This document shows, one piece after another, positions 969 to 61,207 of a DNA stretch of 64,000 nt. The position numbers and the translations under genes were made by a program. The DNA comes from an uncultured Nitrososphaerota archaeon. GTDB lineage: Archaea; Thermoproteota; Nitrososphaeria; Nitrososphaerales; CADDZS01. Location: the NCBI GenBank assembly GCA_963799845.1, contig CAWCYI010000006.1:928001-992000 (forward strand). The letters are read 5' to 3'. The notes under the pieces were generated by a model, which searched no databases, had not been told where the DNA came from, and worked only from the letters and a program-made list of their open reading frames with translations. Position 1 is the first letter of the stretch; each line of letters begins with the position of its first letter.

Positions 969-1003
969 TTCGCTAGTAAATTCGTGCGGAAATCATCTTG
1001 CAC
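969..1003 (-). repeat. Degenerate copy of the tRNA-like/TTTACTAGTAAA repeat
   Basis: Reverse complement reads GATTTCCGCACGAATTTACTAGCGAA. Confidence 0.6.
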
Positions 1004-1326
1004 AAGTGTTCTTCATTCCGCCAGGATCGACTTTTGCGGACTAATCAGTATCGAATCCTATCGGGACGTTGCAATTAGAGCAATTTGTATGCGATTTGAA
1101 CGAAAAACGCCTATTTTTACGGTCTCATCATAAATTCGATTCGAACACCACTCAATTCAAACCTCCATCCACCTTGTTTCCTTTCCGCAATAAGGTCCGC
1201 GTTCTGATGAGACTAGGAGCATTTGGTCAAGAATTGAAGTCGTAACGAGCAACAGACTGGTGGTCTGGAAGTGCAGACAACACTCCTAATGTAACCCCTC
1301 AGTTCTGACGCATGGTTTGAAAAAGT

Positions 1327-1789
1327 ATGATGGAAGTTAAGCTGAGATGAAAAAAGGTGGATCCAGGATAATGAGAATCAAAAGTCACCGAAACGCAGGC
1401 AGGCCAGACCGATCAGAGAAATCAGGCAATTAAGAGTACGAGCACCTTCGTGCGCGAGTTGCGAGCTACCGATCCTATCGACGCTTTCAGCGGGTCCGGA
1501 TAGTGGATTGCCAACCAAGGAAGTAATTCAAGAAGTAATCATGAATTGGTTTAGCGATCTATCTGAAGATGATTGTCAAGCGAAATATCCCAGTTCTCGG
1601 AAAAAGATAATTCAGACGATTATCAAATTTTCAAAAAAGAATCTTGCGCTGAAAGATCAGGTCTGCTCAGCGCCCATCGGAACTTGGAGAATTACGCCAA
1701 AGGGGGCGGAGAGAGTGATTAAGGGCATGGGCGAGTGGGTGCCAAGATATTCCTTTCACGATGCTATCATCGAAGAGGTTAAGAAATGA
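1327..1789 (+). CDS. Mrr N-terminal-like winged-helix protein, apparent +1 frameshift near 1345
   Basis: ELPIL..LS..EVI..WF.DLSEDD...KKNL...GTWRITPKG pattern; paralog of 31251-31640. Confidence 0.6.
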
Positions 1790-1849
1790 CGGATGTCCAT
1801 AACTTTCGGGCGTGCGCCAAATACAATACTCTTGGAATAGGTGATAGCA

Positions 1850-2201
1850 GTGCCTCAACCCCACCTGGACCGTTCCGGTTAATTTTAGGGCACAGGATAG
1901 ATCTGTTCTGGACGCAGCCCTGAATATAGCGAAGAACGAAGGTCGCGATGTCACTTCAGTTTTTCGCACCGCCCTGACAGAATTCGTGGGAAGAAAAAAT
2001 CTTCAACACGAGGGTCCAAAAATGGATGAATTCATTCGTGATTCGATGATATCGGAACCAATTTACAGTAAGATGCTAACTCCTAAAGTTCTAGGACTGT
2101 GGTCGGAAAGCGACCTGCTGAGCGCTGCCAAGAAAGTACGCTCGCGAAAATGGGAACTAGACTGCGAACTTCGCTTGCGGGGATTTCACTTTGACTGGTA
2201 G
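1850..2201 (+). CDS. Ribbon-helix-helix-like DNA-binding protein, extra C near 1860
   Basis: AGGTGA SD then GTG; the frame upstream of the 1986 ORF reads TVPVNFRAQDRSVLDAALNIAKNEGRDVTSVFRTALTEFV. Confidence 0.5.
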
Positions 2202-9873: not shown

Positions 9874-9972
9874 TAAAGTTATGAGTCGAAACCTTGCAAA
9901 CTTTTCAACCTGAAGCGTTTGCTACTTACCCAGTCAGATATATTACAAACTGCAATCTTATCTTTGACGCAG

Positions 9973-10312
9973 ATGAAGACGCTTCCAGATTCTGTCAAGA
10001 AGCTTATCGAGGCAAAGACTTTCGCAAACGTTGCCACATTGATGGCAGATGGCTCTCCTCACGTCACGCCGACGTGGGTCGATCACGACGGGGATATTGT
10101 CCTAATCAATACTTTTGAAGGTAGCCAACAATACACAAACGCTATCAAGGATGCCAGGATCGCGCTCGATATCTTCGACACAACGAATCCCTACGACAGG
10201 GCAGTAATCCGTGGGCGTGTCAGGGATGTGACCTTCGATGGAGCAGAGGAGCACTTGGACGGAATGGCAAAGAAATACCTCGGGCTGGACAAATACCAAT
10301 TTACTAGTAAAA
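9973..10312 (+). pseudogene. PPOX-class (F420-type) oxidoreductase, 3'-truncated at a repeat
   Basis: FANVATLMADGSPHVTPTWVD...AKKYLGLDKY; homology stops at CAATTTACTAGTAAAA. Confidence 0.7.
10296..10312 (+). repeat. Palindromic core of the repeat
   Basis: CCAATTTACTAGTAAAA, identical to 12189-12205. Confidence 0.8.
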
Positions 10313-10499
10313 TGATGTCTTGTTCGACCACATTACGGACACGCCTATTGACAATATTTCTGACTTTTTTGGTCCTTTCTTACTCAACGGTATCGCAGCA
10401 GCATAATGATGCCTCCATCTTAAATAATTCGTAGTTGTGTGTCGTTCCGATCAAAAGTTGTCGACGGAAGGACAGTCAACTAAAAATTTTAAGACCCCA

Positions 10500-12185
10500 A
10501 TGAATGCCGCACAACTCCTAGTGCGATGTTTGGAAAATGAGGGTGTCAAGTACGTCTTTGGAATACCCGGTGAGGAAAATATTCACATGGTCGATGCTTT
10601 CAATGGTTCGTCCATTCGTTTTATTCTAGTTCGTCACGAGCAAGCCGCTTCTTTCATGGCTGATATTTACGGCAGACTCACGGGACATGCTGCAGTGTGC
10701 ATTGCAACGTTAGGACCTGGAGCGCTCAATCTAGTGCTCGGCACGGCAGATGCGAACACTGACAGTGTTCCGCTCGTTGCAATAAGCGCGCAGGTAGGAC
10801 TGAATCGTATCTACAAAGAATCTCACCAAAGCGTTGACTTGGTAAGCCTGTTCAAACCGCTCACAAAGTGGTCTGACCTGATCCGATCAGCAGAGGCTAT
10901 TCCAGAGATGGTGCGCAGTGCCTTCAAGCAGGCCCAGACAGAACGACCTGGAGCTGTGTATCTGTCTCTCCCTGAGGATGTCGAAGCCCTCCCAGCCCCT
11001 GAAGGATCCCACCCGCTCGAGATCAATGTCGTTCGCGACTCCTCCCCATCGGCTTCCCAAATAGAGAGAGCCGCCAAGGTTCTAGGAGGTGCAAAAAGAC
11101 CAATCGTACTGGCTGGACATGGGGCTGTCCGTGATCATGCAAGTGAAGCACTTACACGCTTCTCTGAGCGTCTTGGAATACCTGTGGCAACGACCTTTAT
11201 GGGAAAGGGCGTTTTTCCAGACAATCAGCCAAATTCTCTGGGGGCCGCAGGATTCATGCGCCATGATTACGTGAATTTTGCATTCGATCAGGCTGACGTG
11301 ATTCTATGCGTCGGCTACGATCTGCAGGAATTCGATCCCGAGAGCATCAATCCAAAAGGGGACAAAGAAATTCTTCACATACATCGTTATCCAGCGGGAG
11401 TCGACGCTCATTATCATGTCGCCGTCGGTATACAAGGCAGCATTTCAGAGTCACTTGACATTCTTTCTCAACAAGTTAGGGCAACGACTGGATTGAATAC
11501 AACAGATATCAAGATTCGCAGCCTCCTTCGTGAAGAGCTAGACAAAGGAAGAAAAGACGACTCTTATCCGGTCAAGCCCCAACGAATCGTAGCAGACATC
11601 AGAGCAGCAATGGGCGAAGAAGATATCGTACTTGTTGATACGGGGGCTATCAAGATGTGGATGGCTCGTCTTTACCCCACTTACCGGCCGAACACATGTC
11701 TTATTTCCAATGGTCTCGCAACCATGGCCTTTTCGTTCCCAGGCGCAATTAGTGCGAAGCTTGCATTCCCTGATCGTAAAGTCCTGGCGGCGTCTGGTGA
11801 CGCTGGATTCCTCATGAACTCGCAGGAACTCGAGACAGCGATACGCGAAAAAATTCCTGTTGTAGTGTTGGTATGGGAAGACAGGAGCTATGGGCTGATC
11901 AAGTGGAAAATGGATCTTGAGTTAGGCCATCATTCGCTAGTTGACTTTGGTAACCCAGACTTCGTAAAGTTAGCCGAAAGCTACGGCGCCAATGGATACG
12001 CAATAAAACGAACAGAAGATTTGCTCCCCACTCTGCAAACAGCCCTTGTGGATAACACCGTCTCCGTAATCGCTTGTCCCGTTGATTATTCAGAAAATCT
12101 GGAGCTGACTGAGACGCTGGGAAAACTGGCGCCTCACTCTCTAGACATCGAGGGTTATTGCGAAAATGCGAGAAGTGGGATTTGA
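10500..12185 (+). CDS. Acetolactate synthase large subunit-like ThDP enzyme
   Basis: VFGIPGEEN, RHEQAASFMA, TLGPGALN, GDAGFLMNSQEL. Confidence 0.92.
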   Translation: MNAAQLLVRCLENEGVKYVFGIPGEENIHMVDAFNGSSIRFILVRHEQAASFMADIYGRLTGHAAVCIATLGPGALNLVLGTADANTDSVPLVAISAQVGLNRIYKESHQSVDLVSLFKPLTKWSDLIRSAEAIPEMVRSAFKQAQTERPGAVYLSLPEDVEALPAPEGSHPLEINVVRDSSPSASQIERAAKVLGGAKRPIVLAGHGAVRDHASEALTRFSERLGIPVATTFMGKGVFPDNQPNSLGAAGFMRHDYVNFAFDQADVILCVGYDLQEFDPESINPKGDKEILHIHRYPAGVDAHYHVAVGIQGSISESLDILSQQVRATTGLNTTDIKIRSLLREELDKGRKDDSYPVKPQRIVADIRAAMGEEDIVLVDTGAIKMWMARLYPTYRPNTCLISNGLATMAFSFPGAISAKLAFPDRKVLAASGDAGFLMNSQELETAIREKIPVVVLVWEDRSYGLIKWKMDLELGHHSLVDFGNPDFVKLAESYGANGYAIKRTEDLLPTLQTALVDNTVSVIACPVDYSENLELTETLGKLAPHSLDIEGYCENARSGI

Positions 12186-12206
12186 ACCCCAATTTACTAG
12201 TAAAAA
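12167..12206 (+). repeat. tRNA-like/TTTACTAGTAAA repeat
   Basis: TGCGAGAAGTGGGATTTGAACCCCAATTTACTAGTAAAAA. Confidence 0.85.
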
Positions 12207-12353
12207 TCACTTCGAGATGTATAGCGATGTTGGGCTAGGAACTTTTCACTTCGTAAAGTCTCCATCTTTAGGGCATTCCTTTCAAGGCGTGCACTCCTAA
12301 GTCCTTGAATTCCAGGCCGGACTCGCAAAAAAAAAGAATGAACCCACTTACTG

Positions 12354-12758
12354 TTACATATTTGCGCGATTCCCGCCAAAGGGGTCGTCGATTACAAAGC
12401 GCCAAGTTCCGTCAGGCTGCTTTCTAACCACTTCTAGAGTATTGATTAAGTTGCGCACTTCTTTCCCGGTTTTGGGATCCATATCGATGGATGTAATTTT
12501 CATTCGAGTTGTGGCTATCGTACCATCTCCACTCATCACGGTTTTGATATCGTGAATGATGAATTTTGATTTCGAAGCGATGCCCTTCTCATTTTGTTTG
12601 CGAATTGCATCCTTTCCTTTGAGGAGCTCATCTGGTCCCGCGAAAAGCACGGCATCGGGCTCGTAAAGAGCCACAGACGTTTCAATGTCACCCTTCTCTA
12701 TTGCTTCAACAATCAGACGATCACAGTCCTCTGGTTTGTTTGCCGGGATAAATTTCAT
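12354..12758 (-). CDS. SnoaL/NTF2-like (YybH-type) protein
   Basis: GDIETSVALYEPDAV...EVVRKQPDGTWRFVIDDP. Confidence 0.85.
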   Translation of the reverse strand: MKFIPANKPEDCDRLIVEAIEKGDIETSVALYEPDAVLFAGPDELLKGKDAIRKQNEKGIASKSKFIIHDIKTVMSGDGTIATTRMKITSIDMDPKTGKEVRNLINTLEVVRKQPDGTWRFVIDDPFGGNRANM

Positions 12759-12972
12759 GGCTTTCCTTCGATTTCGGCTTCGCTAAAAGAGTTAGCAAAA
12801 GCCCTTTAATTGTCCAGAACCGTCCCCGACGAAAACATCCCAATTAGGGATATCCGACCACTCGATTGCTAAAAATATTCGAGTGGCAGGACCCAACGGT
12901 TTTCTCAGTTTACCGGAGCTGCTGTCTGCACCTGCGGAGTTGTGGCTCTCGCTTTTGATTGCGGGGCAGAGG

Positions 12973-14577
12973 CTACTCGGGCGGAATCTCAGAGAATATC
13001 GTCCTAAGTGTGGTACCTGCCTTGTGAGCATTGTACCTGCCCCAGGCGAGTATCAGCAGGGCGATGAGGATGATTACCCCAACCTCCGCGTATGCATCAC
13101 CGAGGCTCGCTCCGAGGTAGGTTCCGCTCACCAGGGGCGATGTCTCGGAGATGACGTATATCGCAAATCCCGCCGCTCCCACGAAGCCAGCTACCGACAT
13201 CAACCAAGCGCCCTTCATTGATCCGTAGAGTCTTTTGTAGAGGCTGGGCCTTATGATCGGAAACAGGCCAGCAGCGAGGAGTGGCATGCCGAGCCCTATG
13301 GGGATCATGGTGGATGAATTCAGGATAGATGCAATCGCACCATATTCCCAGTATACTGTCAAGTACGCCCCAGAGAGCACACCGATGAGAATCGTCGCGA
13401 CGTGCGGCGAATGGAACCTGTCGCTCACATTCGCGAAGCTCTTCGGGAGAATCCTGTCCATGGAGGCCGCAAAGACCATTCGCGAGGAGAAAATAACGAG
13501 TCCCGTTGAGTTGATCATCCATCCCAGGAACAAGCCTATTCCAACTATCGCGCCGATGGCAGGGTCTTGCAGTGACAGAAGGAAATTGGGGAAAGGATCA
13601 ACGGGGAACGCGGTAGGGTGGACCCCCGCAACGTAGGCGAGAGAATTGAGAAATTGCGTAGTGAAACTGCTATAGACGAGGAAGGTCAGGATTTCAAGCG
13701 CGACTATCGTGGTTACCCAGGACAGTATGTATGCTCTATAGATGCTCGTCTTGACGTTCCTCGTCTCCCCCGCAGCGTATGAGCTGAAGTTGAAACCGAC
13801 GTAGGTAAGGAATCCCCACGGAATAGCGGCCAGGAGTGTGTTGGGCAGGCTGAACGCGGTCGCGGAATAGCCACCTGCGGTTGTGGTGGATAACACACTC
13901 TGATATGTGGTGTTGGAGCCCACGAAGGACATCGCGCTGTTGAAGCTCGTCGCGACGTCGGGTCTTGATAGGATGCCGACGCCGATAGCGAACAAGGTCA
14001 CAACGAGAAGGTACATGGGCACACTGATTCTGCAGAAGATGGAGTACGCCCGTATCCCTAGCAGGGCAATCAGTATTATCACAATAAGCACGACGAAGGA
14101 GAGCGGAAAGCCCCAGGCGGTTGAGGCGAGGTTCGTGGCCAGGCTCGTGAGACTGGCGCTCTTGATTGCCGCTCCCACGCCAAAGAACGACGGCCCAAGC
14201 CCTATGACGAACTGGTCCCAGAGGTTAAAGACATTGTAATAGACCAGAGCACCGATGAGGAACACGACCTGAATCGTGCCATAAATCGGACCCACGATAC
14301 GCGTCGACCAAACATAGTCTCCACCGCTTCGGGACATCCCTGCGCTGAGCTTCCCGTAGACATACGCCATGCACAGCGGAGGTATCCCACCCAAGGCGAA
14401 AACGGCGTACAGATTGGCGCCCGGGAAGAAGTAGGGCGCGAAGAGGACGGTCGTTACGAATCCGTTGATGATTAGGACGATCCCCTGCGAGATGAGTAAA
14501 TGGTCTCTAAAACCGAGTTCCCGCACCAGGCCCGTGGCATCCCTGGCGAAGACCTTCGTCTGAGTTGGTTGTGCCAA
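12973..14577 (-). CDS. APC-family amino acid permease (archaeal type)
   Basis: VFARDATGLVRE, MSRSGGDYVW, DRILPK..VSDRFHSP; about 12 TM helices. Confidence 0.9.
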   Translation of the reverse strand: MAQPTQTKVFARDATGLVRELGFRDHLLISQGIVLIINGFVTTVLFAPYFFPGANLYAVFALGGIPPLCMAYVYGKLSAGMSRSGGDYVWSTRIVGPIYGTIQVVFLIGALVYYNVFNLWDQFVIGLGPSFFGVGAAIKSASLTSLATNLASTAWGFPLSFVVLIVIILIALLGIRAYSIFCRISVPMYLLVVTLFAIGVGILSRPDVATSFNSAMSFVGSNTTYQSVLSTTTAGGYSATAFSLPNTLLAAIPWGFLTYVGFNFSSYAAGETRNVKTSIYRAYILSWVTTIVALEILTFLVYSSFTTQFLNSLAYVAGVHPTAFPVDPFPNFLLSLQDPAIGAIVGIGLFLGWMINSTGLVIFSSRMVFAASMDRILPKSFANVSDRFHSPHVATILIGVLSGAYLTVYWEYGAIASILNSSTMIPIGLGMPLLAAGLFPIIRPSLYKRLYGSMKGAWLMSVAGFVGAAGFAIYVISETSPLVSGTYLGASLGDAYAEVGVIILIALLILAWGRYNAHKAGTTLRTIFSEIPPE

Positions 14578-15152
14578 CTGGATAGCTCGAGTAGCGCGAA
14601 AGAGCCAGCTCGATAAAAGCCTTGTGGCCGATTGTAATTGTTAACTGGCCCGACCCTAAGTGTGCACTCCGTAAAAGCACCAATATCATACTAGAAATCT
14701 TTTCTAGCTTTCCGCGGCCTTAGAAGTGGTTTCTCTTTTGACTAGTTACTATGCGGCTTGAGCTGGGCTTCTGCTTCGCATTGATTAACACTTGCTGTCA
14801 CCGATATCTTGGCAACACATTGACGACACACTGAAATTCTAGCAAAGAACAGTGAAAGAGTCGGAACACTACGTCTGGTCGGTCTGAAATCGACCACGCG
14901 GCAATACAACATTGACGCCCTGCTTATTTCACGGTCATAGGAACGTCTATTTCCGCACCTTGATCATCTACTGCTCATCAGTCCGCGATGTTGCATGAGT
15001 CAGCGAGGATCCTCCTCAAGCCCTGATAGTTGGATCTGACCAAAAGTGCTAGTCTTCCACGTATTCAATAATAAGACTGCACCAATGGAAAATTCTCATT
15101 TATAGGGGCGAAACAGTCCCTTTGACGATAATAATCAGGCGTGATTAACAAG

Positions 15153-16318
15153 ATGAAGATCAGCGATGTCAGAACAATTCTTGCAGGAGGAACAGCTGGA
15201 CGAAACTGGCTTTTCGTCAAAGTTGAAACCTCTGACGGATTGGTTGGATACGGGGAATCTACACTTGAGAGTAGAGAACAAACAACTGAGACAGCTATTT
15301 TGGAATTAAAGCGATATCTTATTGGCAAAGATGCCACTGAAATCGAAAGACACTGGCAGGCCATGTATAGGGGGTCCTTTTGGCGCGGGGGCCTGTTCTA
15401 TGCAGCGCAATTTCGGGAGTGGACCAATGCCTATGGGATCTCTTGGGCAAAAGCTTAGGATGCCCCGTTTTCAAATTACTCGGGGGCCCTTGTCGTGACA
15501 AGGTCAAAACATACACTCATGTCGCAGGACTTACTCCCGAAGATCTGGCGGAAAATGCAAAACGGATGGTGAATAAAGGATTCAAGGCCCTGAAACTTCT
15601 GACAGACGGAGCCAACAGCTACGACATCATCTCAATCCCCAACAAAGTTGAGGTCATGGAACGCAGGCCTATCAAGCAAACTTTAGCTCGAGTGGAAGCA
15701 GTAAGAAATGCTGTTGGCGAGGGAGTTGATATAATGCTCGATGCACATGGAAGACTGGATCCGGCTACTGCCTCCATTCTCGCTTCTGAACTTGAGCCGT
15801 ATGATTTGCTATTCTTGGAAGAACCCGTTCCTCCTGACAGCCTTGGTGCTCTTCAACGCGTTGCGGAAAAAAGTAAAGTGCCTATCGCTGCTGGGGAAAG
15901 GTCCTACACCAAATTTGGATTCTGGGACCTCATCCAAAGTAGAGCTGTGGACGTCATCCAACCTGATTTATGCCACGCAGGTGGAATTACCGAATGCAAG
16001 AAAATTGCCTCTGTCGCTGAATGCAACTATATTTCAGTCTCACCCCACAACCCTAATAGCCCATTAGCAACTGCCGTTTCGCTTCATCTGGACTTTAGTA
16101 CGCCTAATTTTCTTATTCAAGAAATGATTCCGAACGAAATTGGCGCTCGAAAGGGCGTGCTAAAGAAACAACTGGAATTTGAGGATGGTTACTTGAAATT
16201 ACCAATGGGACCAGGATTCGGGGTAGAGCTAGATGAAGACTCTCTCTGGAATTATCCGTTTAAAGGGGAAGATCTTCCTCATGTATCTTATGATGATGGC
16301 TCGGTTGCCGATTGGTGA
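15153..16318 (+). CDS. Galactonate dehydratase-like enolase-superfamily enzyme, frameshift near 15390
   Basis: NWLFVKVET, FWRGG, DAHGR, EEP, GER, QPDLCHAGGI, PHNP. Confidence 0.85.
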
Positions 16319-16524: not shown

Positions 16525-16606
16525 TTCACTAGTAAAATCCACTTGCAGAATAATTCAGTGCGCGGAAAGTGGGATTTGAACTGCATTTTACTAGCGAGCC
16601 CTAACC
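16525..16606 (+). repeat. Tandem repeat unit (two palindromic cores plus tRNA-like segment)
   Basis: ACTAGTAAAATC...TGCGCGGAAAGTGGGATTTGAACTGCATTTTACTAGCGAG. Confidence 0.8.
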
Positions 16607-17321: not shown

Positions 17322-17381
17322 CAGATACGCGACCACAGTTTTGGAGGCTGACGGGCGAAATGCGGTGAGCTGAGCTTCATG

Positions 17382-17412
17382 GGTTTGGGCTCGCTAGTAA
17401 ATCCCGAGTGCG
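17382..17412 (-). repeat. Inverted partner of 16587-16606
   Basis: GGTTTGGGCTCGCTAGTAAA matches the reverse complement of TTTACTAGCGAGCCCTAACC at 19/20 positions. Confidence 0.8.
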
Positions 17413-17592
17413 AGATCAATTCTTTGTGGGACGATCTTTAGCCATAGCCGAGAACTCCAATACTGGCTCTACGTCACAGGTTCAGTGACTTGCTAAAGAA
17501 CTATCGCTTTGACTTTTGCTGAAGCTGATTGAAAGTAATCGAAGTTTGCGTTAAGAGAATTCCTTGAATATCAGTATGAGTATGATCCTTAC

Positions 17593-18034: not shown

Positions 18035-18056
18035 TTGTAACTGTCTTCCCACCGAG

Positions 18057-18219
18057 TGCGGGATGTGGGACCCCCGCACGAATTTACTAGTAAAAATGCA
18101 AACCCTCTGTAATCCTGCAAAACCAGAAGTCGGGCAGGAAACGGGATTTGTGCGCGAAGTTTACGAGCAAATCACGAGTACGTGAATGTGGGATTTGGGC
18201 ACGAATTTACTGGTAAAAA
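18057..18219 (+). repeat. Three tandem copies of the repeat
   Basis: Copies at 18057-18096, ~18133-18172 (degenerate) and 18179-18219. Confidence 0.85.
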
Positions 18220-18573: not shown

Positions 18574-18933
18574 CACAGGGGCCCACTGGCGGCAGGAGAA
18601 ATCTGTCTCATTTTCCTGTCGCGGTCCCCCTACCCCCTTTTTTTTCTCTTCAGGGCAATAATGCTCGCAACATGAAATAATGTCCTCTCGAAAATTGGCA
18701 GACCGCCGCTCAGTCAGCTTCAATTATTCCCACTCCAGAGTTTTCTCTAGGGAGCGTAATGGCCATGGTCCCACGCCTTTTTGCTCTCATCGCGTTTCTC
18801 ACAATCATGTCAAGGATTGCCCGAAGAAGTTCAATCTGAAACAATATGCAAGGGAGTCCAAGGCCCCAGCTTGAGTGTTCGGAGCCGAGATTTGATTCTT
18901 TTCAATAGCTTAGTCGCATTAGTGAATTCCATC

Positions 18934-18967
18934 TGCGGGATGGGGGGATTCGAACACGAATTTACTT
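18934..18967 (+). repeat. Repeat copy
   Basis: TGCGGGATGGGGGGATTCGAACACGAATTTACTT. Confidence 0.75.
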
Positions 18968-19068
18968 GACGCGCATCAGTTGTTTGTAAAGTACCGTCGC
19001 CTAGACTGTATAGTGAAAGAAATTATCCTTTCCAATGAAGTAGTGGCGAGAGCGAAGTGCCTTATCCC

Positions 19069-19226
19069 TTACTAGTAAAATCAACTTTCAGAATGATCCC
19101 ACGCGCGGAATGTGGGACCCCCGCACGAATTTATTAGTAAAAATACATGTCAATTCACAGGATTTTTGAAAGATGAAACGTACAGATCAGGCGAGGTACG
19201 GGATTCGCGCACGTATTTACTAGTAA
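19069..19226 (+). repeat. Tandem repeat cluster
   Basis: Core at 19069-19080, copies at 19103-19143 and 19191-19226. Confidence 0.85.
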
Positions 19227-19310
19227 CACTAAGAAAAGCTCGGGGTTCTTTACTCGTGATGGTGCGAAAGAGATATTATCTGAGACACCATCGACCACAA
19301 TGAAAGAATT

Positions 19311-23846: not shown

Positions 23847-23850
23847 ACTA

Positions 23851-33135: not shown

Positions 33136-33327
33136 GAGAGGCTAATCTAAGATTTTCATGCCCGCTGGGGATTCGCACCTAATTAGGTACCAGTACCAAA
33201 GAATCGTTTTATGGCAAGGAAATAGCCGAAATGGTAAAAATAATATGAGGTTCCACGTGGGGATTTGACTCGGATAACTTAGCTTAGTGAATCGATGTAT
33301 ATTTGTCGTTACTTATCTGAAACCTCA

Positions 33328-33385
33328 CGTGCGGGGGTCCCACATTCCGCGCCCGGAATCTTATCCTTTTGTGATTATTTACTAG
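33328..33385 (-). repeat. Repeat copy, palindrome split by IS110 type B
   Basis: CGTGCGGGGGTCCCACATTCCGCGC...ATTTACTAG. Confidence 0.85.
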
Positions 33386-33433
33386 GTGACATGATCGACA
33401 GAGTTAACGGAAGGTAAAGCCACAGCCAAGCAC

Positions 33434-34414
33434 ATGTACGCAGCTATAGATCTTCATCAAAGAACCGTCCAGCTGAGTACTCAAGGACGAAAGAGGACAG
33501 ATTGCAGGTGAGACGAAAATTGGCAAGGATGCAAGGAGCATACTCGAGTTTCTCGATGGCACTGACGCCAGAGTAGTCATGGAATCGGGCTACAACCATG
33601 AACACATCTACGATCTCCTCAAAGAAGAGGGATACGATGTTAAGGTAGCTCATCCGCTGTTGGTTAAGGCGATCGCCTACGCAAAGGTGAAAAATGACAA
33701 GGTGGACGCAAGGATGCTCGCAGATTTATTGAGACTAGACATGATTCCAGAGTGCTACATTCCAAGGAAAGAGACGAGAGAACTAAGAGACCTCGCAAGG
33801 AGGAGGCACTATTTCGTCTCGACAAGAACCACGTTCAAAAACAAAATCCATGCTGAGCTCAGCAGGAGATGGATTGATTACAGCAAAACAGATCTCTTCA
33901 CGCAGGTCGGAAGAGACCATCTAAAATCCCTTCATATTGCAGCAGTAGATGACTATCTCGACTCGATAGAGTTCCTAGATGCGAAAATAAAGGAGCTTGA
34001 CAGCCAAATCAAGGAACAGGCTCTTCAAGACAAGTACGCAAAACTACTTGTGACGGTGCCTGGAATATCTTACTACGGAGCTCTGCTAATCTCGAGCGAG
34101 ATTGCAGGACATCAATAGATTCCCAGATGCCGAACACTTGTGCTCGTACGCAAAATTAGCTCCTGGAACACACCAATCGGGAGAGACTCAATTCCAGAAA
34201 CCAGATCGAAAAGGAAATCGCATGCTCAACTGGATAATGATCCAGTGCGCACACATCCACGTCCTAAACTGCAATTCATCTATAACCAGGCATTACAACA
34301 AAATCAAGGAGACAAAAGGAGCAAAGATCGCTATCGTCGCAGCGGCGAGAAAGCTCGACGTGCGCAATCTACATGATGCTGAAGGAAGAAAGAGCCTTCA
34401 GGCTGGACGGCTAA
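33434..34414 (+). CDS. IS110 recombinase B (several apparent frameshifts)
   Basis: MYAAIDLH, VMESG, KNDKVDA, TVPGIS, CSYAKLAPGTHQSG, AARKL. Confidence 0.85.
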
Positions 34415-34419
34415 ACCAT

Positions 34420-34570
34420 AGACTGGGCTCGAGAATTTACTGCATCGCCAGGATGCGTTTACTAGGATGAGCCAAAGGCAATAAGCGAAAGCCACAATGT
34501 TCCATTTGGGAACGAATGGGAGTATGCTCGTCCAGCATAGGAATGGATATTAGGTGATAGAGCCCAGCCG
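34420..34570 (+). ncRNA. Putative bridge/seek RNA of IS110 type B
   Basis: GGCTC-[GAATTTACT]-GCATC..GATGC-[TTTACTAG]-GAGCC loop; second loop contains ATGGGAG. Confidence 0.78.
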
Positions 34571-34577
34571 ACATGGG

Positions 34578-34647
34578 AGTAAATTCGTGCGGGGGTCCCA
34601 CATTGGGCACACGGAATTATCCGTTCTTTGGAATTTACTAGTAAAAT
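34578..34647 (-). repeat. Repeat copy
   Basis: AGTAAATTCGTGCGGGGGTCCCACATT...AATTTACTAGTAAAAT. Confidence 0.85.
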
Positions 34648-39966: not shown

Positions 39967-39995
39967 TAGTTCGGAATCCCATCGTAATTTGGCAA

Positions 39996-40081
39996 TTTTT
40001 ACTAGTAAATCCGTGCGGGGGTCCCACATCTCGCATTCATGATTTACTAGGAAAACTCATGTACGAATCCCGTACCTCGCA
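39996..40081 (-). repeat. Two tandem repeat copies
   Basis: TTTACTAGTAAATCCGTGCGGGGGTCCCACATCTCGCA; TTTACTAGGAAAACTCATGTACGAATCCCGTACCTCGC. Confidence 0.85.
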
Positions 40082-40168
40082 AACCCCTTTACCAACAAAG
40101 TCTAACTTGTATCATCTAAGAATATCCGACGATCGTAACAACAAATCATTGACGGCCTTCGCAACTAA

Positions 40169-49024: not shown

Positions 49025-49050
49025 TGCGGGGGGTGGGACCCGTTGCACGT
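49025..49050 (+). repeat. Degenerate repeat copy
   Basis: TGCGGGGGGTGGGACCCGTTGCACG. Confidence 0.5.
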
Positions 49051-49206
49051 ACTGCTCCCCAAAGACGTATCTCCAAAACGCAGTTCAATTTTCTAGTCCG
49101 AAAAGTAGCAATTGGGGAGCCGTTCGTTGTGGAAAATATTTCCTGCAAACCCAACAATTGGATCGGATGGGAATCAGAAATCTTCTACCATAGAGTTTTT
49201 GAGAGC

Positions 49207-50338: not shown

Positions 50339-52408
50339 TTGTCATCCCAATTCAAACATCTGTTTACTCCAATCGATGTCGGTCCCGTTCGTCTCAGAAA
50401 CAGAATCTCTGTTACTCCACATGCAACCATGTTTACATCTGACGCAAGAGACAACCTCCCTGGAGAGATGCTAGCTAACTACTGCGCTGAAAGGGCAAAG
50501 GGGGGAGTAGCTCTTGTTGAGATCTCGATGGCAATTGTCAGTAAGGAAGTTGGTCAGACCGCTCCGGATACCGATGCACACTTTAGTCATTTGAGCGGCG
50601 GCCACCCGATGATCCTCACCGGACGGTGGCCCCTTCGCGCTACCGACCCGCGGATTGTCTACGGATACTCGAAGCTCGCAAGGAAAGTGCATGAATACGG
50701 AGCAAAGTGTTTCATCGAGCTCGCTTCCGGCGGCACAAACGTCGGTAACGACAAGGGAGTTTCTAGGTTCCCGTGGCCCTCTCGCCCAATTCACGTCTTA
50801 CCAATTACTCCACGCGAGATGAACGAAGAAGACATCGAGTCACAGATCGAGGCATATGGTTACGGAGCAAAGCTCGTAAAAGACTCCGGTCTGGATGGAG
50901 TCGACCTACACGGCACGCACGGTGCCCTAATTTCCGAATTTCTTTCTCCGCTGATGAACCGGAGAAACGACCGGTGGGGCGGCTCACTGGATAATCGCAT
51001 GCGCTTCCTGGAACTTGTGATCAAAAGGATCAGGGAAAACGTGGGCAGCGACATCGCGCTGGGCATGCGGCTTATCGGGTACGAGCGGTTCGAGGGTGGA
51101 AATTCCCCGAAAGACGCCGCTGAAATTGCGAGAAGACTAGACGGCAAGATCGACTGGATCACCGCGGACCAGGGCTACTCGCCACAACAGGAAGCGTGGC
51201 AGGCAGTCCCGATGTACGTCGAGAGCGGTTACAATCTGGGGATCACAGATGCCGTGAAATCTTCTGTCCAGAAAACAAAGGTCTGCATCGTCGGCAAGTA
51301 CGTGGACGTGACGTATGCGGAGAGCCTCATTGCAAGCGGCAAAGCGGATATTGTTGCGATGACAAGGGCCCTGATCGCTGATCCGGAGCTCCCGAACAAG
51401 GCGATGGAGGGCAGGATTGACGAGATCCGACCGTGCATAGGAGTGCTCCAGGATTGCTGGGGGAGGATGATCCGCGGACTGCCGATCTCCTGCACCGTCA
51501 ACCCGGTCGTCAGCAGGGAAAAGGAGTGGGGCATCGGGACGATCAAAGAGGCACCGGTCAGGAAAAAAATCTTGGTGATCGGCGGGGGAATCGCTGGACT
51601 GGAATTTGCAAGGCTAGCTGCTGAAAGGGGACACGAAGTCGTGATCTACGAAAAGTCAACAAGCAGTGGCGGGCTCGCCATGACAGCCGCCAAGCTCCCG
51701 GGCCGCGAGAACATTCGCGCGATAGTAAGCTGGTTATCAGATCAGGTAAAGCGAGCCGGCGTGGAAGTAAAGTACGGTCTGGAGGTGACGCAGGACCCAG
51801 ATGTCATCGAATACGTCCTCGGTGAAGAAAAAGCTGACGCGGTCGTCATCGCAACAGGATCAAATCCTATTCGCTCCGGCTTCCAGCCGTATACCATGAA
51901 CGAAATCCGCGGCTGGGATCAACCGATCGTCTGCACTGATCAGGACGTTATCGAGCGAAAAACAGTTTTAGGGCATAGAGTAATCGTCGCCGATACACTC
52001 AGTTTCATTGAAGCTCCCGGAGTCGCCGAGTACATCGCAAAGCAGGGGCGGGAGGTCGAAGTGGTCACTCCGCTTGAGAACATCGCCCTGGAGCTAGATC
52101 TCTACAACCATCTCGAGCACGTGCTTCCTCGAATATTTGCTGCCGGTGTCAAGATATCTCCCTACACATGGGTCAGGAGAGTCGAGGGAAGAAAGGTTAC
52201 TCTTTACAACATCTACTACGAGCGAGAGGAGAGAGTCGAGGAAGTCGATAACCTCGTCCTGATCACCGGGCGAATGCAGAACGATTCACTGTACACCGCT
52301 TTCGTCCGAAAAGCGAAAGAAGTTTACCTGATCGGCGATGCGAGAATTGGCGGAGCGCGTATCGGAAACGCGATGTACGACGCGGGGAAACTGGCGAGAG
52401 AAATTTAG
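50339..52408 (+). CDS. NADH:flavin oxidoreductase (OYE TIM barrel + FAD domain)
   Basis: ERAKGG, HGTHGALISEFLSP..N.R.D.WGG, RALIADP, IGGGIAG. Confidence 0.9.
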   Translation: MSSQFKHLFTPIDVGPVRLRNRISVTPHATMFTSDARDNLPGEMLANYCAERAKGGVALVEISMAIVSKEVGQTAPDTDAHFSHLSGGHPMILTGRWPLRATDPRIVYGYSKLARKVHEYGAKCFIELASGGTNVGNDKGVSRFPWPSRPIHVLPITPREMNEEDIESQIEAYGYGAKLVKDSGLDGVDLHGTHGALISEFLSPLMNRRNDRWGGSLDNRMRFLELVIKRIRENVGSDIALGMRLIGYERFEGGNSPKDAAEIARRLDGKIDWITADQGYSPQQEAWQAVPMYVESGYNLGITDAVKSSVQKTKVCIVGKYVDVTYAESLIASGKADIVAMTRALIADPELPNKAMEGRIDEIRPCIGVLQDCWGRMIRGLPISCTVNPVVSREKEWGIGTIKEAPVRKKILVIGGGIAGLEFARLAAERGHEVVIYEKSTSSGGLAMTAAKLPGRENIRAIVSWLSDQVKRAGVEVKYGLEVTQDPDVIEYVLGEEKADAVVIATGSNPIRSGFQPYTMNEIRGWDQPIVCTDQDVIERKTVLGHRVIVADTLSFIEAPGVAEYIAKQGREVEVVTPLENIALELDLYNHLEHVLPRIFAAGVKISPYTWVRRVEGRKVTLYNIYYEREERVEEVDNLVLITGRMQNDSLYTAFVRKAKEVYLIGDARIGGARIGNAMYDAGKLAREI

Positions 52409-53091: not shown

Positions 53092-55131
53092 TTAGCCGAA
53101 AGTTACTGTATTGATTATCGGTGTCGTCGTCATTCCGTTCCAGACTGGATCAAGAAGAAGCTCTTGATCACGCCGGTCTGCCATACGAACGATCCGCTCT
53201 CGTACCACAGCCCTGGAAAACCGATCCACGCATACGGCGCATCGTTATAGATCTGTCCCTGTGCTGTCGTGCAGACAGACTGTATGTATGATGCATTTGC
53301 GCTGCTCGTAAATGCGTTCACACACGCCTGAACCGTTGGGTTGGCATAGCCGGCCCAGTTGCCCCACAACGAGGCGTTGTTGACAAAGCCGATCCAGTAG
53401 TCAGCTGGAGTAAGCGCGGCCGGTGCCCAGACCGATCCTCCGAGGATTGACATCTGTCCCATCTCATTGCCGTTCTTCACGTTAGTTGCATACGTGCCGT
53501 ACGGAGCGTAGTACGAGCTTGACTCCTGCTCTTCGACGTTGACCGTTATCCCGAGCTGGGCGAGGTCACCCTGAACGATCTGACCGATCTCCGAGCAATA
53601 GACGCAGGTCGAGATGGCAGTAAAGGTGAGCGTAGGCATGTTTGTGATATTTGCCTTGGCAAGATCTGCCTTCGCAAGCGTCATATTGAACTGATAAGGT
53701 GTGTAATTACCCAGATCGTCGTACTGCGACCACGCGGGATATTCCGGTCCCATTCCCGGCGTCATCTTGCCGAAAAACACCTTCTGGTCAATGTCCGAGT
53801 AATTGATCGCGTGGACGATCGCCTGTCTGACGAGAGTAATGTTAGTTGGATATTCATTCACGTCAAGTGGAATAGCCAGGATCTGAGCGGTATACGGTGG
53901 ATTTGTCACGTATGAGTACTTTGACGCACTTGCAAGGACAAGACTCCAATCCTGCGACTGGATGGCGACCAGCTGTGCGGCTCCCGTTGAAAGATCAGTA
54001 TATCTCGAAAGATCGTCAGTCTTGTACAGAATGGTGATGGTCTTCGCGTGTCCCGGATCCAGTTCACCGTTCGCGGCAATTTCGGAAGCACTTAGACTGT
54101 TTCCCCAATAATTCGGATTCTGGGCAAACGTCATGTACGCGTCCTCAGAGTACCCCGACACCGTGTAAGGCCCGGTTCCCGGAATGGAGTGCTGGTTGAA
54201 GTACGAATTGTACGAAGTTGGTGTTCCGAATCCGCCGTGATCCATTACCCACTGGGTGTCAAACACCATACCAGAGTACACGACCATGATCCCCAAAAAG
54301 TAGATGAATGGGGATTGAAGGTGGAATACAATCGTATTCGGTCCGGTCACGTAAATCGGCCATGATGAATTTTCCATGATCGCGAGTGCCTGCGGCGATG
54401 GATTGATCAAACCCGACTGGTTGATTAGGGCAATCGTGTCAGGACCGAAATGTACGCCCGTCATGTTGAAGATATCATAAGATTCCATCCACGCGCTGCT
54501 GTTGCCGGACAGGTAGTAAAATCCATACATCTCCATCCAGTACCTGGTACGCGTTGAATGGATCGCCGTTTGAAAAGTTCACGTTCTGCCTCAGTGTAAA
54601 GTTGTAGTAAGTGCTCGCAGAATTGATTGTCCAGTTGGACGCCAGTCCCGGCAGGTATTGAATGACTCCCTGCCCATACTCCGCGCCGAGGTTAACGTCA
54701 ACCATCGTCTGGTAGACTGCGAACGCGTACCACTGCGGCCACGGCAGCTCTGTCGGTTCGTAAAGGACGTTCATGTCATCGATCGGCCAGTTAAAGTCCT
54801 CCAGGGTTAGCGACTGCGCGAGCTGACCTGAAGACGAGGTGGAAGTTGAAGATGAGCTCGATGAGGACGAGCTGGAAACTGAAGAACTGCTAGAACTACT
54901 AGAGCTGCTCGACGAGCTCGTGCTGGGGGCGGCGCTTGATGAAGAACCGGACGTCGTCGGAGGGGCCTGGGTTGTGCTCGACGTAGTGGAAGTCGTCGAC
55001 GTGGTTGAGGTCGCCTTATTTGCAAGCGCGAGGAACCCGCCTGCAGCAATTATTATGATTACAATTACAACAATACCGATCGTCGCCGCCCTGCTCAGTG
55101 CATGCTTTACTCTAGATCTAGTAGAGAGCAT
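53092..55131 (-). CDS. Archaeal peptide ABC substrate-binding protein with an S/T linker, frameshifts near 54540 and 53150
   Basis: N-terminal TM segment, Ser-rich linker, FSNGDPFNA, PGTGPY, VRQAI.HAINY. Confidence 0.85.
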
Positions 55132-58168: not shown

Positions 58169-58732
58169 TAAATTCGTGGGTTTTCCCGCTCGCAAGTGAT
58201 AAACTGCAATCCTCTGGAGATTCGATCCTATTACTATAACTGAGATTAATTCGGTAGCCGCGATGAGGCTTTCCTATTCCAATATCGTGTATGTCGATAA
58301 GTGTAATTTGTTGATCGCTGAGATCTAGATCAGCAGACGGGTGGACCGCAAGGGTAAGGGTACCACAACGTGATAAATCCGAGCAATTTTGATCGCAGAG
58401 TCGGCAACCTCAGAACCTCCGGTTGTAAAAAAACCTCTTTCATTCGCCTGGCAAAATGCTCGAATCCCTCAATTTTATTTCAACAAAAGCGTTTATCTAC
58501 GCACGTGGCAGGGTTTGATCGCGCCGATGATGTAGCGGTGTATTTTCCATACACCATTTTCCCGCCGATGGGATATGGAGTTGGCTGCTGGTTGCCTAGT
58601 TTTCCTTACCTGAAGTTAGATCTTTGCATATTTGCACGTGGAAACTGCGCTTGCCCAAGCTATTTTGCCCATTGTGCCAGCAGCTCTCGACAGTTGAGCT
58701 CATTCTTGGTCAAGAGAGAGGGGGGCGGGTTG

Positions 58733-60793
58733 CTAGACTAACCTGCCAATTCGCTGTCCATCGTACATTGCAAAGCCGATCCTAGCGCCTGCAATGTTTC
58801 CATCACCCACAAGATAGACTTCTCGATGCTTTTTCCTGAACGTTTGATACAGGGTGTCATTTTGTATTCTGCCGGTTATCAGAATTATGTTGTCAACCTC
58901 ACGAAGCATCTCAGTTTGCTTTTCGTAAAAATTGTACAATATTACGCTGTACTTCTCTATCTTCTTGATCCATGTGAAAGGCGTAATCTTTATTCCGGAC
59001 ACTACGAGCCTCGGGAATAGGTGCTCCCAGTGGTTCATCAAATTAAGCTCAAGAGCTATATTTTCGAGCGGAGTTACAATCTCGACTTTCTTTCCCTGGT
59101 TTGCCAGATGCTCGGCAAGAGCCGGAGCCTCGATGAAACTCAGAGTATCTGCGATAAGGATCGTTTGTCCTAGATGCGATCTTCCCTCCCAAACATCCTC
59201 GTCCGTACAAACATTCGGTTGATTCCAGCCTTCTATTTCGTTAAATGTATAGGGCTGGAATCCATTCTTTATGGGGGTTGAGCCAGTGGCTATCACAACG
59301 GCGTCAGGTTTTTCTTCGTTTAGAACATAGTCGACAACTTCTTGATCGTCAGTAACTTCCAAGCCATATTTGATATCTACGCCGAGTACCTTAACTTGAT
59401 CAATAAGCCAGCTGACAATTGCCCTTAGATTGGCTCTGCCGGGCAGTTTTCCTGCAATCAGTGCTTGGCCACCCGCTAGTGTCGACTTTTCATAGATTCT
59501 TACTCTGTGACCCCTTAAAGCTGCGATCCTCGCAGCTTCCAGACCTGCCACACCTCCACCGATTATCAATACGTTTTTCTTGGTTATGGCTGACGTTAGC
59601 GTATCCATTCCCCACGTCTCCTCTCTTCCAGCTGCTGGATTCACAGTGCACGAAATCGGAAGACCGCGAAGCATTCTTCCCCAACAGTCCTGAAGAGCAC
59701 CGATACACGGACGAATTTCCATCAATCTTCCGTCTCTCGCTTTATTGGGAAGCTCAGGGTCAGCTATTAGGGCGCGCGTCATCGCTACCATGTCTGCCTG
59801 ACCATTGGCAATCAAGCTTTCCGCATATCCCGGATCGGCATATTTTCCGACCACGCCCACCTTGGTCTTTCTTAGCACTGCCTTAATTGGATTAGTTATT
59901 CTGAGATTGTAACCGCTTTCCACATACATTGGGACAGCTTGCCAATCCTCTTGATGAGGAGAGTAACCTCTGTCTGGCGTAATCCAGTCAACCTGTCCAT
60001 CAAGAGAAGATGCAATCCGTGACGCGATCTCGGGCGTGTTTCCGCCCTCGTACCGCTCATCTCCCATCAATCTCATCCCAACAGCAATTTCGCCATTTGT
60101 ATATTCCTTTACGCGTTTTATGACTTCTTTGAGGAATCTCATTCTATTTTCCAAGGTGCCGCCCCACTTGTCCTTGCGCTTGTTCATCACCCCGGATAGG
60201 AACTGAGAAATTAACGCACCATGAGTGCCATGCAAATCTATTCCGTCCAGTCCTGAATCTCTAACGAATTTCGCCCCGTTTCCAAAAGCCTCAATTTCGG
60301 CTTCTATGGTAGTCTCATCCATTTCCCTTTTTGTGAAGGGCAAGGCATGAATGGGATGAGAGGGTACTGGATAGGACGACACTCCCATTCCACTCGCCAC
60401 CGCAGAAGAGAGTTCAATGAAACACTTCGCGCCATACTTGTGTACTTGTTTTGTAAGCTTTGAGTATCCCTCTACTACTCTTGGATCCGAAGCCTGAATA
60501 GGAAATCTTCCTGTCAGATCCATGGGATGACCCAGGTTCAAGGGGCTAAAATGAGAGTCCGTAAAAATCGCTGTCTCTCCCGGGCCGGCAACAACCCTTC
60601 CCATCGAAACTTCGATTAGCCCCACTCCCCCTTTCGCTCTCTCAGCGCAATAGTAGGATAGCCTGTCTCCTGGCAGATTATCGCGATTATCGGAAGCGAA
60701 CATCGTTGCATGTGGGGTAATGTATATTCTATTTTTGATAGTCATTGGTCCTAATTCGATAGGAGAAAAAAGATGCTCGAAAGCTTGGGACAT
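58733..60793 (-). CDS. NADH:flavin oxidoreductase, paralog of 50339-52408
   Basis: Same motifs, high similarity. Confidence 0.9.
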   Translation of the reverse strand: MSQAFEHLFSPIELGPMTIKNRIYITPHATMFASDNRDNLPGDRLSYYCAERAKGGVGLIEVSMGRVVAGPGETAIFTDSHFSPLNLGHPMDLTGRFPIQASDPRVVEGYSKLTKQVHKYGAKCFIELSSAVASGMGVSSYPVPSHPIHALPFTKREMDETTIEAEIEAFGNGAKFVRDSGLDGIDLHGTHGALISQFLSGVMNKRKDKWGGTLENRMRFLKEVIKRVKEYTNGEIAVGMRLMGDERYEGGNTPEIASRIASSLDGQVDWITPDRGYSPHQEDWQAVPMYVESGYNLRITNPIKAVLRKTKVGVVGKYADPGYAESLIANGQADMVAMTRALIADPELPNKARDGRLMEIRPCIGALQDCWGRMLRGLPISCTVNPAAGREETWGMDTLTSAITKKNVLIIGGGVAGLEAARIAALRGHRVRIYEKSTLAGGQALIAGKLPGRANLRAIVSWLIDQVKVLGVDIKYGLEVTDDQEVVDYVLNEEKPDAVVIATGSTPIKNGFQPYTFNEIEGWNQPNVCTDEDVWEGRSHLGQTILIADTLSFIEAPALAEHLANQGKKVEIVTPLENIALELNLMNHWEHLFPRLVVSGIKITPFTWIKKIEKYSVILYNFYEKQTEMLREVDNIILITGRIQNDTLYQTFRKKHREVYLVGDGNIAGARIGFAMYDGQRIGRLV

Positions 60794-61147
60794 AGGCAAT
60801 TTGGTTTTTTGAATAATATTTAGCACTTTTATTCTTTGAGCAAGTAGTTGCTACGATTTTCAGAGTTTTTTGTTGGCCGGGTGTCTTCAATGAAATGCCC
60901 TAACATTTCATTCTCGAACAGAAAAAACCATCGATGACAAACCCCTCATTTCATACGTCATAGAAGCCGTGCAGGACTCATGTCACAAATGGGTGGTTAT
61001 GGCCGAGAGAATACCCGTTGAAAGCTTCCAAGCAATCTTTGGAAGAGACGATCCGCGTATTGCAGTTATCATCGACGAGTTCCCATGGAAAGTCCTTCCT
61101 CATAAGCAGTTTTTGAGCAAGTGGGATCATGGAATAAATATTCGCTG

Positions 61148-61207
61148 TTTTACCAGAAAATTCGTGCTCAAATCCCAAATCACCCACTCGGGATTTACTG
61201 GTAAAAT
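61148..61207 (-). repeat. Repeat copy plus a second core
   Basis: TTTACCAGAAAATTCGTGCTCAAATCCCA...GGATTTACTGGTAAAA. Confidence 0.7.

Follow-up and report, generated by a model that had tools for sequence, protein, structure and literature searches.

A repeat that holds the 3' tail of a tRNA between palindromic arms is dispersed through an accessory region of an uncultured Nitrososphaerota archaeon. We read it, with somewhat less than even confidence, as the recombination site that bounds mobile gene cassettes in an integron-like system (or an attC-type array without an integrase), which would have a site of a new type and a recombinase still to be found. The DNA analyzed, hereafter the window, is the 64 000-nt stretch C6:928001-992000 (contig C6) of genome G000, a 4.6-Mb assembly of 9 contigs with 47% G+C and 86.7% completeness; coordinates given without a contig refer to the window. 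We favor site-specific recombination over self-copying of a repetitive extragenic palindrome (REP) or miniature inverted-repeat transposable element (MITE), and over a regulatory motif, because of the conserved, dimer-type palindromic arms around a tRNA-like core, the polarity of the arrays independent of the genes, the small cargo between units (toxin–antitoxin pairs included) in several lineages, the homologies that end at units, and the reassorting unit halves.

The window is rich in insertion sequences (IS). It carries two kinds of IS110-family element (IS110-A and IS110-B below), two IS630 copies, and IS3-, IS4- and IS5-type genes, and its cargo includes PIN/MazE, paralogous adenylate cyclase-tetratricopeptide repeat (TPR) genes, an ABC-2 transporter and various small enzymes. 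Soil-metagenome runs of one study contain window DNA, and public contigs that bear the repeat are labeled as Thaumarchaeota or Nitrososphaerales metagenome-assembled genomes (MAGs).

Anatomy of the unit and its likeness to tRNA

Aligned genomic copies give a full unit P-TCCCGAGTGCGAGAT-GTGGGA-(CCCCC or TTTGAAC)-GCACGAA-P(AAAAT), in which the arm P is the 12-base perfect palindrome TTTACTAGTAAA, present on both sides. A long form has ~20 additional bases after the left P, and a B form reads GCGAGGTACGGGATTCGCGCACGTA-P. A and B units are often consecutive, with one of two conserved ~45 nt spacers between them, and many copies are truncated or degenerate. The second copy of the palindrome, the several subtypes and the uniform orientation within arrays go beyond the original prediction, which a model had made from the letters of the window alone.

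That prediction had recognized a tRNA 3' end in the repeat, and rightly so: the reverse complement of the core reads as T-loop, T-stem 3' strand, acceptor 3' strand and discriminator A, and the B core is identical at 18 of 18 bases to the 3' end of the host tRNA gene C7:113855-113947. It had further proposed alignment to the host's tRNAs, Leu first. The A core does resemble the T arm of tRNA-Leu genes, but its acceptor is carried by no tRNA in the assembly. The window holds no intact tRNA (0 by ARAGORN, 0 by Rfam), no intact tRNA gene heads or ends an array in G000, and neither the window nor 20 external loci matched any Rfam family, except for two true tRNAs nearby. Split-tRNA 3' halves are an unlikely identity for the units, as most cores have GGGGGT in the place of the T-loop; a matching 5' piece was not looked for.

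Nearly every detectable tRNA gene of this genome has an intron (e.g. C7:113855-113947 and C6:539980-540141). ARAGORN finds 9 tRNA genes without its intron mode and makes 35 predictions with it, some with implausibly large introns; the Rfam tRNA model gives 12 matches, 11 of them 90–141 nt long. About 30 credible tRNA genes are few for a 4.6-Mb genome.

As single-stranded DNA, short units fold into imperfect hairpins on either strand (z-scores –7.0, –6.3, –3.3 and –5.4); in the folds of two long-form units the hairpin was not significant. The halves of the unit are combined freely. Short left halves are joined to CCCCC right halves in 6 units, to TTTGAAC in 6 and to TTTGAGC in 2, while long left halves are joined to CCCCC in 4 and to TTTGAAC in 3. 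Because all left/right combinations occur, exchange appears to take place around the invariant GTGGGA.

Clustering and polarity

With at most one mismatch, P occurs 12 times in the window against a mean of 0.09 expected, a count that none of 100 shuffles reached; exact copies in the whole genome number 40, against 0.41 expected from base composition. A profile (nhmmer) made from 12 window copies yields 92 matches genome-wide at E up to 10, and the 57 with E below 0.001 were accepted as units; one of these is a duplicate shared by contigs C7 and C8, leaving 56 distinct. The repeat of about 15 copies originally described is real, and its positions agree with the profile, except that the entry at 10296 is a solitary palindrome, that at 17382 a half-unit, and that at 49025 a degenerate fragment.

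The original prediction held that recombination sites should be neither spread evenly nor set at a fixed distance from start codons. The units are indeed clustered: the 56 fill 18 of ~92 50-kb bins, whereas 2000 random placements filled 42 on average and never fewer than 33, and the window alone carries 12 against 0.8 expected. They keep no fixed distance from start codons and lie mainly at gene 3' ends. Outside open reading frames (ORFs) of at least 90 aa, the size also used for the ORF counts between units, lie 46 of the 57, and the 36 intergenic gaps that they occupy include 19 convergent and 2 divergent ones (all gaps: 18% convergent, 27% divergent).

Within arrays the units are strongly polar. 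Neighbors less than 20 kb apart share a strand in 35 of 37 pairs, as do 25 of the 27 pairs at least 300 bp apart within that distance. Polarity switches twice, each time where IS are abundant; one switch falls between 19.2 and 33.3 kb of the window. Genes between units point in both directions and unit orientation is independent of neighboring genes; where the 3' end of one neighbor alone faces a unit in G000, orientation is split 11 versus 9. A link of unit orientation to GC skew or gene-strand bias was considered and set aside, there being no clear relation (agreement in 34–41 of 56 and 21–35 of 56).

Gene blocks and breakpoints

Co-oriented neighbors define 35 intervals, 10 of which are under 300 bp and belong to composite units. 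Among the 25 of at least 300 bp, 13 hold 0–2 ORFs and 12 hold 4–10, in partial agreement with the one-gene or small-operon intervals of the original prediction. In the window, the P at 10300 is directly followed by the gene of a thiamine pyrophosphate (TPP) enzyme that ends at unit 12166 (ORF 10437-12185, with its stop codon inside the unit), and unit 16555, DinB, half-unit 17382, a 156-aa ORF and unit 18052 follow one another. Similar cargo is found in the other arrays of the genome: short-chain dehydrogenases, methyltransferases, DUF1801, glyoxalase, cupin and RibD_C genes, TetR regulators, ABC-2 transporters, cyclase-TPR genes, PIN and UPF0175; accessory genes of the islands also include DinB, SnoaL and PIN/MazE modules.

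Homology between paralogous or related loci ends at units. For the PNPOx-like gene (9919), it ends at 10284-10301 in six loci (G000:C4, G004, G005, G007 and two in G009; a seventh, in G001, was left out of this count), and three homologs in alignment continue where the window switches to P at 10300. The original prediction had several genes breaking off at a copy; the claim stands for this one gene alone. The segments at C6:900492 and C4:1971760 have in common a unit and ~380 bp rightward at ~90% identity, after which homology stops at TTTACTAG|TAAAT, and C4:1371607-1371990 and C7:21832-22215 are 99% identical up to ..GAATCCCGT|ACCTCGC within the B core.

One locus records a gain. At C4:597464 in G000, an insert of ~290 bp opens with a B unit right after a stop codon and is absent from the orthologous convergent gap of G003, G004 and G002, that is, from all three same-genus genomes with both flanks on one contig. 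Together with the ends of homology, this supports the proposed coincidence of units with breakpoints. For L092, L094, L095 and the enolase region (60300-64000), no syntenic contig of a relative spanned the unit.

Copies in other lineages

Among the 42 candidates scored per genome with a covariance model of the double-palindrome unit, G000 has 32 copies, 7 of the family's 12 other genomes have 1–4 each, and the 108 genomes from the order's 19 other families give one weak match; the assemblies of the relatives are fragmented MAGs, with units often at contig ends. The exact 19-base arm GCACGAATTTACTAGTAAA occurs at eight loci in a 185 579-species collection, all archaeal (five labeled Thaumarchaeota or Nitrososphaerales, two on one Bathyarchaeota contig, and one Thermoplasmatales), and at 59 metagenome loci, with none in viral contigs.

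In copies that are not of the thaumarchaeal type the arm is joined to other tRNA-like tails, with acceptor strands like CCGGAGCA (Glu), CCCCCGCA, CCGGCGC and CGGGAGC. At L031 and L033 the segment lies ~80 nt behind an intact tRNA-Glu, and at L014, L039 and L056 the 5' part of the tRNA is replaced by an inverted arm, giving a hairpin of ~150 nt.

Small blocks between co-oriented units recur on these contigs. The Bathyarchaeota-labeled contig has two such units around a ParE-type toxin gene and its upstream partner ORF (~940 bp), adjoined by a HEPN/nucleotidyltransferase pair; a PIN/MazE pair (L046), an Nre gene (L013) and a 315-aa ORF (L037) are enclosed in the same way. A 368-aa ORF ahead of the Bathyarchaeota cassette was considered as a recombinase and rejected, having no family match and no motif by eye. 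Single copies in other lineages are neighbored by ordinary chromosomal genes, not by recognizable mobile elements.

Some placements look like those of a signal acting in cis at gene ends, such as a bidirectional terminator, a tRNA-like element for 3'-UTR processing or stability, or a protein binding site, kept by selection. At L048 an ORF ends on the TAG-TAA of the palindrome, at L040 and L065 a unit follows the FeoB stop by ~20 nt, units in G000 are enriched at 3' ends and in convergent gaps, and the 19-nt arm is conserved in contigs labeled Thaumarchaeota, Bathyarchaeota and Thermoplasmatales. We nevertheless hold such a role to be very improbable: the 11 versus 9 split shows that units in G000 take no fixed orientation to the neighboring gene, copies are restricted to islands and not scattered across the operons of the genome, 107 of the 108 genomes searched in other families of the order lack the unit, many copies are truncated or degenerate, and no Rfam family is matched.

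The tRNA-derived core also suggests attachment scars (attL/attR and tandem junctions) of integrase-encoding elements that inserted into tRNA genes and have since decayed and been rearranged by IS, leaving "captured" blocks behind. The core is a tRNA 3' end, matched base for base by C7:113855-113947 in the B subtype, and the segments behind tRNA-Glu (L031, L033) and the arm replacing a tRNA 5' part (L014) fit this account. Integrated mobile genetic elements of Thaumarchaeota used tRNA genes in 39 of 68 cases, nearly always their 3' part, with short att sites and tandem insertion possible, according to one survey (PMC6563490), and partial tRNA genes commonly flank archaeal islands, such as PYG1 of Pyrococcus yayanosii, according to another report (PMC9897764). 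As in those systems, a 3' piece of a tRNA gene is present and tandem insertion would give direct repeats. Unlike in them, the piece is only ~20 nt, sits between two palindromic arms in ~57 copies, adjoins no intact tRNA and no linked integrase, and flanks single genes. No array begins at an intact tRNA and the tRNA with the A-type acceptor is absent from the assembly; the ~250 ORFs scanned in and around arrays include no integrase gene or fragment. Many blocks are one metabolic or toxin–antitoxin gene of 0.7–2 kb, too small for a self-mobile element, and conservation on both sides of the core gives an attP/attC-like rather than an attL/attR form. The casposons of the genome, for their part, have unrelated terminal repeats. 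We regard decayed att scars as rather improbable, though a serious alternative.

Insertion sequences and the REP alternative

One IS uses the palindrome as its target. IS110-B has TTTACTAG on its left and TAAA on its right in all three full copies, and a fragment has the matching half; the window copy lies between two tandem units. In both copies examined (window 33579-34470 and C6:903757-904733) its recombinase consists of two overlapping ORFs, DEDD and then Transposase_20, a layout that may reflect a programmed frameshift rather than decay. Another copy, C4:1954607-1957762 (L070 10607-13762), is interrupted by a group II intron reverse transcriptase/maturase gene.

IS110 was rejected as the driver of the repeat, as its distribution does not track the units: of the 121 genomes of the order, 27 have PF01548 (IS110), as do 4 of the family's 12 others, and it is missing from several MAGs that bear units, with fragmented MAGs limiting what these counts convey. 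Because IS110 genes do not follow the repeat, we treat IS110-B as its exploiter. IS110-A, in four copies, makes no consistent use of the palindrome.

Nor do other mobile elements supply the repeat: no IS630, IS110, IS605 or casposon element of the genome has ends related to the unit. IS630 sits at a TA in a conserved leader beside a unit, and casposon terminal repeats bear no relation to it. MITEs combine terminal inverted repeats and a target-site duplication with empty sites that lack nothing but the element and with an autonomous relative. In the unit, inverted arms are present; at the single locus compared with its orthologs, ~290 bp are inserted rather than the unit by itself.

The two IS630 copies of the window (38840-39970 and 23847-24977) are 100% identical. 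The leader that holds the first is ~100 nt long and is found at four loci (C4:735238, C6:968038, C6:1024519 and C7:23912), each time between a unit and an adenylate cyclase-TPR operon. Two casposon-like elements were seen, one with a protein-primed-type PolB and Cas1 (C4:196000-212000; L078) and one with Cas1 inside 127-bp perfect terminal inverted repeats (C4:233600-238772; L079 3600-8772); a Cas1 fragment (C6:1748317-1748640) lies 0.9 kb from a unit.

The repeat could also be a selfish or structural palindrome like REPs and bacterial interspersed mosaic elements (BIMEs), spread by a transposase that has escaped notice and is possibly lost, with the boundaries as by-products of homologous recombination and IS activity and the blocks not mobile. 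The original prediction had named a REP- or SINE-like element (the latter after short interspersed elements) as its alternative; the REP-like form is viable, though in our judgment unlikely, while the SINE-like form found no support. Our units share several traits with REPs and BIMEs, which are likewise short, imperfect extragenic palindromes found at the 3' ends of genes, multicopy and clustered, and which serve as insertion targets of IS110-family elements. IS621 is one element that targets REPs. ISPpu10 of the same family is another, as stated in a recent preprint (10.64898/2026.03.19.712850). The units form hairpins, are intergenic in 46 of 57 cases, occupy convergent gaps at 19 of 36 against 18% overall, cluster, and are the specific target of IS110-B; their breakpoints lie at differing positions in the unit, and 12 of the 25 intervals hold four or more ORFs.

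The host of the repeat is an archaeon, whereas REPs and BIMEs are bacterial, and other features do not suit a REP. No REP-associated Y1 transposase (RAYT) was found: a link to IS605/RAYT was rejected, both PF01797 genes belong to elements of the IS605 type, which also contain TnpB and have an unrelated hairpin, CCCGTGCCACGGG. The arrays are co-oriented, neither alternating nor built of inverted pairs, and units bound gene blocks that have different neighbors in paralogous copies. Self-copying of one repeat does not explain a core that follows different tRNA tails by lineage while the arm stays constant, and blocks of single genes or toxin–antitoxin pairs between direct units recur in four other contigs.

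A proposed cassette mechanism and its weight

Under the cassette reading, a recombinase supplied in trans would bind the palindromic arms, and strand exchange would occur at or next to GTGGGA (the T-stem 3' strand) or at the palindrome center. A circular cassette with one unit would integrate at any chromosomal unit, and each integration would leave two co-oriented units around the insert, so that polar arrays would build up in accessory islands. This enzyme might be a divergent member of the tyrosine recombinases, act like the RNA-guided IS110 enzymes, or belong to a new family; candidates in G000 are the divergent tyrosine recombinase at C7:200460-201530, the IS110-B recombinase together with the non-coding ends of its element, and conserved hypothetical ORFs of the arrays. 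We infer the recombinase, the crossover point and the circular intermediates from the arrangement of the units, and likewise that the unit may have begun as an att site of tRNA-targeting elements.

Several observations weigh against cassette recombination. The co-occurring tyrosine recombinase sought in line with the original prediction did not turn up: in a genome only 86.7% complete, there are four weak PF00589 matches, all more than 100 kb from arrays or on array-free contigs, the best full-length candidate scoring 29 bits against the archaeal XerA/integron-integrase model NF040815 (cut-off 220), and no serine recombinase. Covariation is scant, a compensatory change being seen in 1 of 16 predicted pairs (pair 15/62, UA to CG, in unit 61147..61207) of a highly conserved sequence. 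The free reassortment of halves could equally stem from gene conversion. Twelve of the 25 intervals hold 4–10 ORFs, too large for small cassettes, and some single units stand outside islands in ordinary gene neighborhoods. The gain at C4:597464 is non-coding DNA and not a clean cassette. The three mapped breakpoints lie at different sites (palindrome center, core and solitary P). As they do not all fall at one base, the case for one fixed crossover point is weaker, and homologous or illegitimate recombination among repeats fits scattered breakpoints as well.

Finally, the circular cassette junctions proposed for a search in sequencing reads were not seen, nor was any excision product or presence/absence variant, among soil contigs over window 9900-20300 from three soil DNA runs of one study. 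These contigs break at units, where depth rises three- to six-fold. The joints considered as excision products (three listed and a 17416-to-18072 junction) were rejected as such; they match other genomic unit copies, e.g. the spacer of C7:22305 and the unit at C4:1971760, and are therefore uninformative on excision.

Comparison with integrons

Like integrons and clusters of attC sites lacking integrases (CALINs), the arrays are polar series of hairpin-forming imperfect palindromes that part small unrelated accessory genes and toxin–antitoxin pairs. An integron or CALIN would have two or more co-oriented sites within 4 kb of each other and mostly one ORF per cassette; here 35 of 37 neighboring pairs are co-oriented, with 0–2 ORFs in 13 of the 25 intervals and 4–10 in the other 12. 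Sites of the attC type are exploited by IS1111-attC elements and used by group IIC-attC introns; the units are similarly exploited by an element of the IS110 superfamily. The attC core consensus is RYYYAAC ... GTTRRRY, whereas the unit ends ATTTAC...GTAAAT, with no AAC/GTT triplet, a tRNA-derived core and a 12-base perfect palindrome on both sides. Unlike in integrons, no IntI lies near the arrays and many blocks are multi-gene, with genes in both orientations. The original prediction of integron-like cassette sites is partly supported, by clustering, polarity, blocks and breakpoints, but not by an integrase, an attC core, a heading tRNA or a circular junction. Without IntI and GTT/AAC cores the repeat fails as an integron member, so we class it only as something that works like one. 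Most archaeal integrons reported so far are attC clusters without an integrase, and the accessible text of the preprint describing them contains neither Nitrososphaeria nor Thaumarchaeota (0 occurrences; 10.1101/2022.02.06.479319).

A bolder and more doubtful extension is that archaea possess an independently evolved counterpart of integrons. It would consist of integrase-less cassettes, frequently toxin–antitoxin pairs or lone accessory enzymes, with a hairpin site made of a tRNA 3' tail between two TTTACTAGTAAA arms, served by a non-IntI recombinase in trans, common to Nitrososphaeria, Bathyarchaeia and Thermoplasmata, and with a core retargeted to different tRNAs. If cassette recombination is correct, soil Nitrososphaeria (Thaumarchaeota) and other archaea would have a route of gene shuffling invisible to existing tools, as integron finders depend on IntI or on attC sites of the canonical kind. 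Cassette recombination would also go some way toward explaining why the genome of this lineage is unusually large (4.6 Mb) and rich in islands, and would point to a recombinase, still to be found, with a simple and well-defined DNA site, as well as to a natural IS110-family element whose fixed target is a 12-base palindrome.

On a more modest reading, this is a well-defined archaeal REP-like repeat family that serves as an IS110 landing pad. Our literature search found the 12-mer TTTACTAGTAAA in two unrelated papers only, and no case of an archaeal REP-like family as an IS110 landing pad.

Units in the window

The units of the window and the IS110-B copy among them are listed in Table 1. The composite at 19068..19230 recurs at C4:1371962-1372088, with a B core equal to the tRNA 3' end. 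In the unit at 33317..33385, the other arm is cut off after CGCACG at 33328. The pair at 39994..40084 is upstream of the conserved leader of a cyclase-TPR operon.

Table 1. Repeat units and the associated IS110-B element in the window
Position	Strand	Feature	Evidence
953..994	-	Partial unit, right arm CGCACGAA and degenerate palindrome 969-980; beside IS110-A end	Profile 968-994, E 0.0051; repeat family D5
10300..10311	.	Solitary P at joint of 3'-truncated PNPOx-like gene and ATG of TPP-enzyme gene	Exact match
12166..12208	+	Unit, TTTGAAC (T-loop-like) subtype, P 12193-12204	Profile E 1.8e-7
16525..16599	+	Long-form unit, left P 16525-16536, TTTGAAC core, degenerate right P	Profile 16555-16599; repeat family D11
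17382..17416	+	Left half-unit (half P and TCCCGAGTGCGAGAT), between DinB and 156-aa ORF	Sequence reading; missed by profile
18052..18097	+	Unit, CCCCC subtype, P 18083-18094	Best profile match in window, E 2.5e-11
18135..18219	+	Weak B-like unit (about 18135-18171), then unit 18175-18219 with P-like site 18206-18217	Profile E 9.3 and 2e-7
18929..18969	+	Unit with degenerate right palindrome	Profile E 3.8e-6
19068..19230	+	Composite: long-form CCCCC unit 19068-19144, 46-nt spacer, B unit 19191-19230	Profile 19100-19144 and 19191-19230
33317..33385	-	Long-form unit, outer palindrome 33378-33385 (TTTACTAG) split by IS110-B	Profile 33317-33357
33386..34579	+	IS110-B, IS110-family element at TTTACTAG^TAAA	Pfam
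34580..34645	-	Long-form unit opening with TAAA half of split palindrome; intact P 34634-34645	Profile 34577-34615
39994..40084	-	Short unit with P on both sides (39998-40009, 40043-40054), then B unit 40043-40084	Profile 39994-40038 and 40043-40084
49025..49060	-	Degenerate core-only fragment, GGGTCCCACCCCCCGCAC-like, without palindrome; membership doubtful	Sequence reading; missed by profile
61147..61207	-	Short unit, two palindromes with complementary changes (TTTACCAG.. and ..CTGGTAAA)	Profile 61147-61192

Other features of the window

Inverted repeats of 93 nt, 97% complementary, delimit a 4.6-kb element at 23049-27625; the element holds hypothetical ORFs only, apart from an inserted IS630, and includes the lowest GC of the window (36.7% at 26–28 kb). 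At 53130-55131, a gene for a family-5 solute-binding protein is split into ORFs of 468 and 218 aa, which suggests a frameshift. Two inverted paralogs (50339-52408 and 58733-60826) encode an old yellow enzyme (OYE)-type flavin oxidoreductase fused to an FAD/NAD domain; they are ~72% identical over 110 nt in the repeat scan and bracket an IS5-type transposase and other genes.

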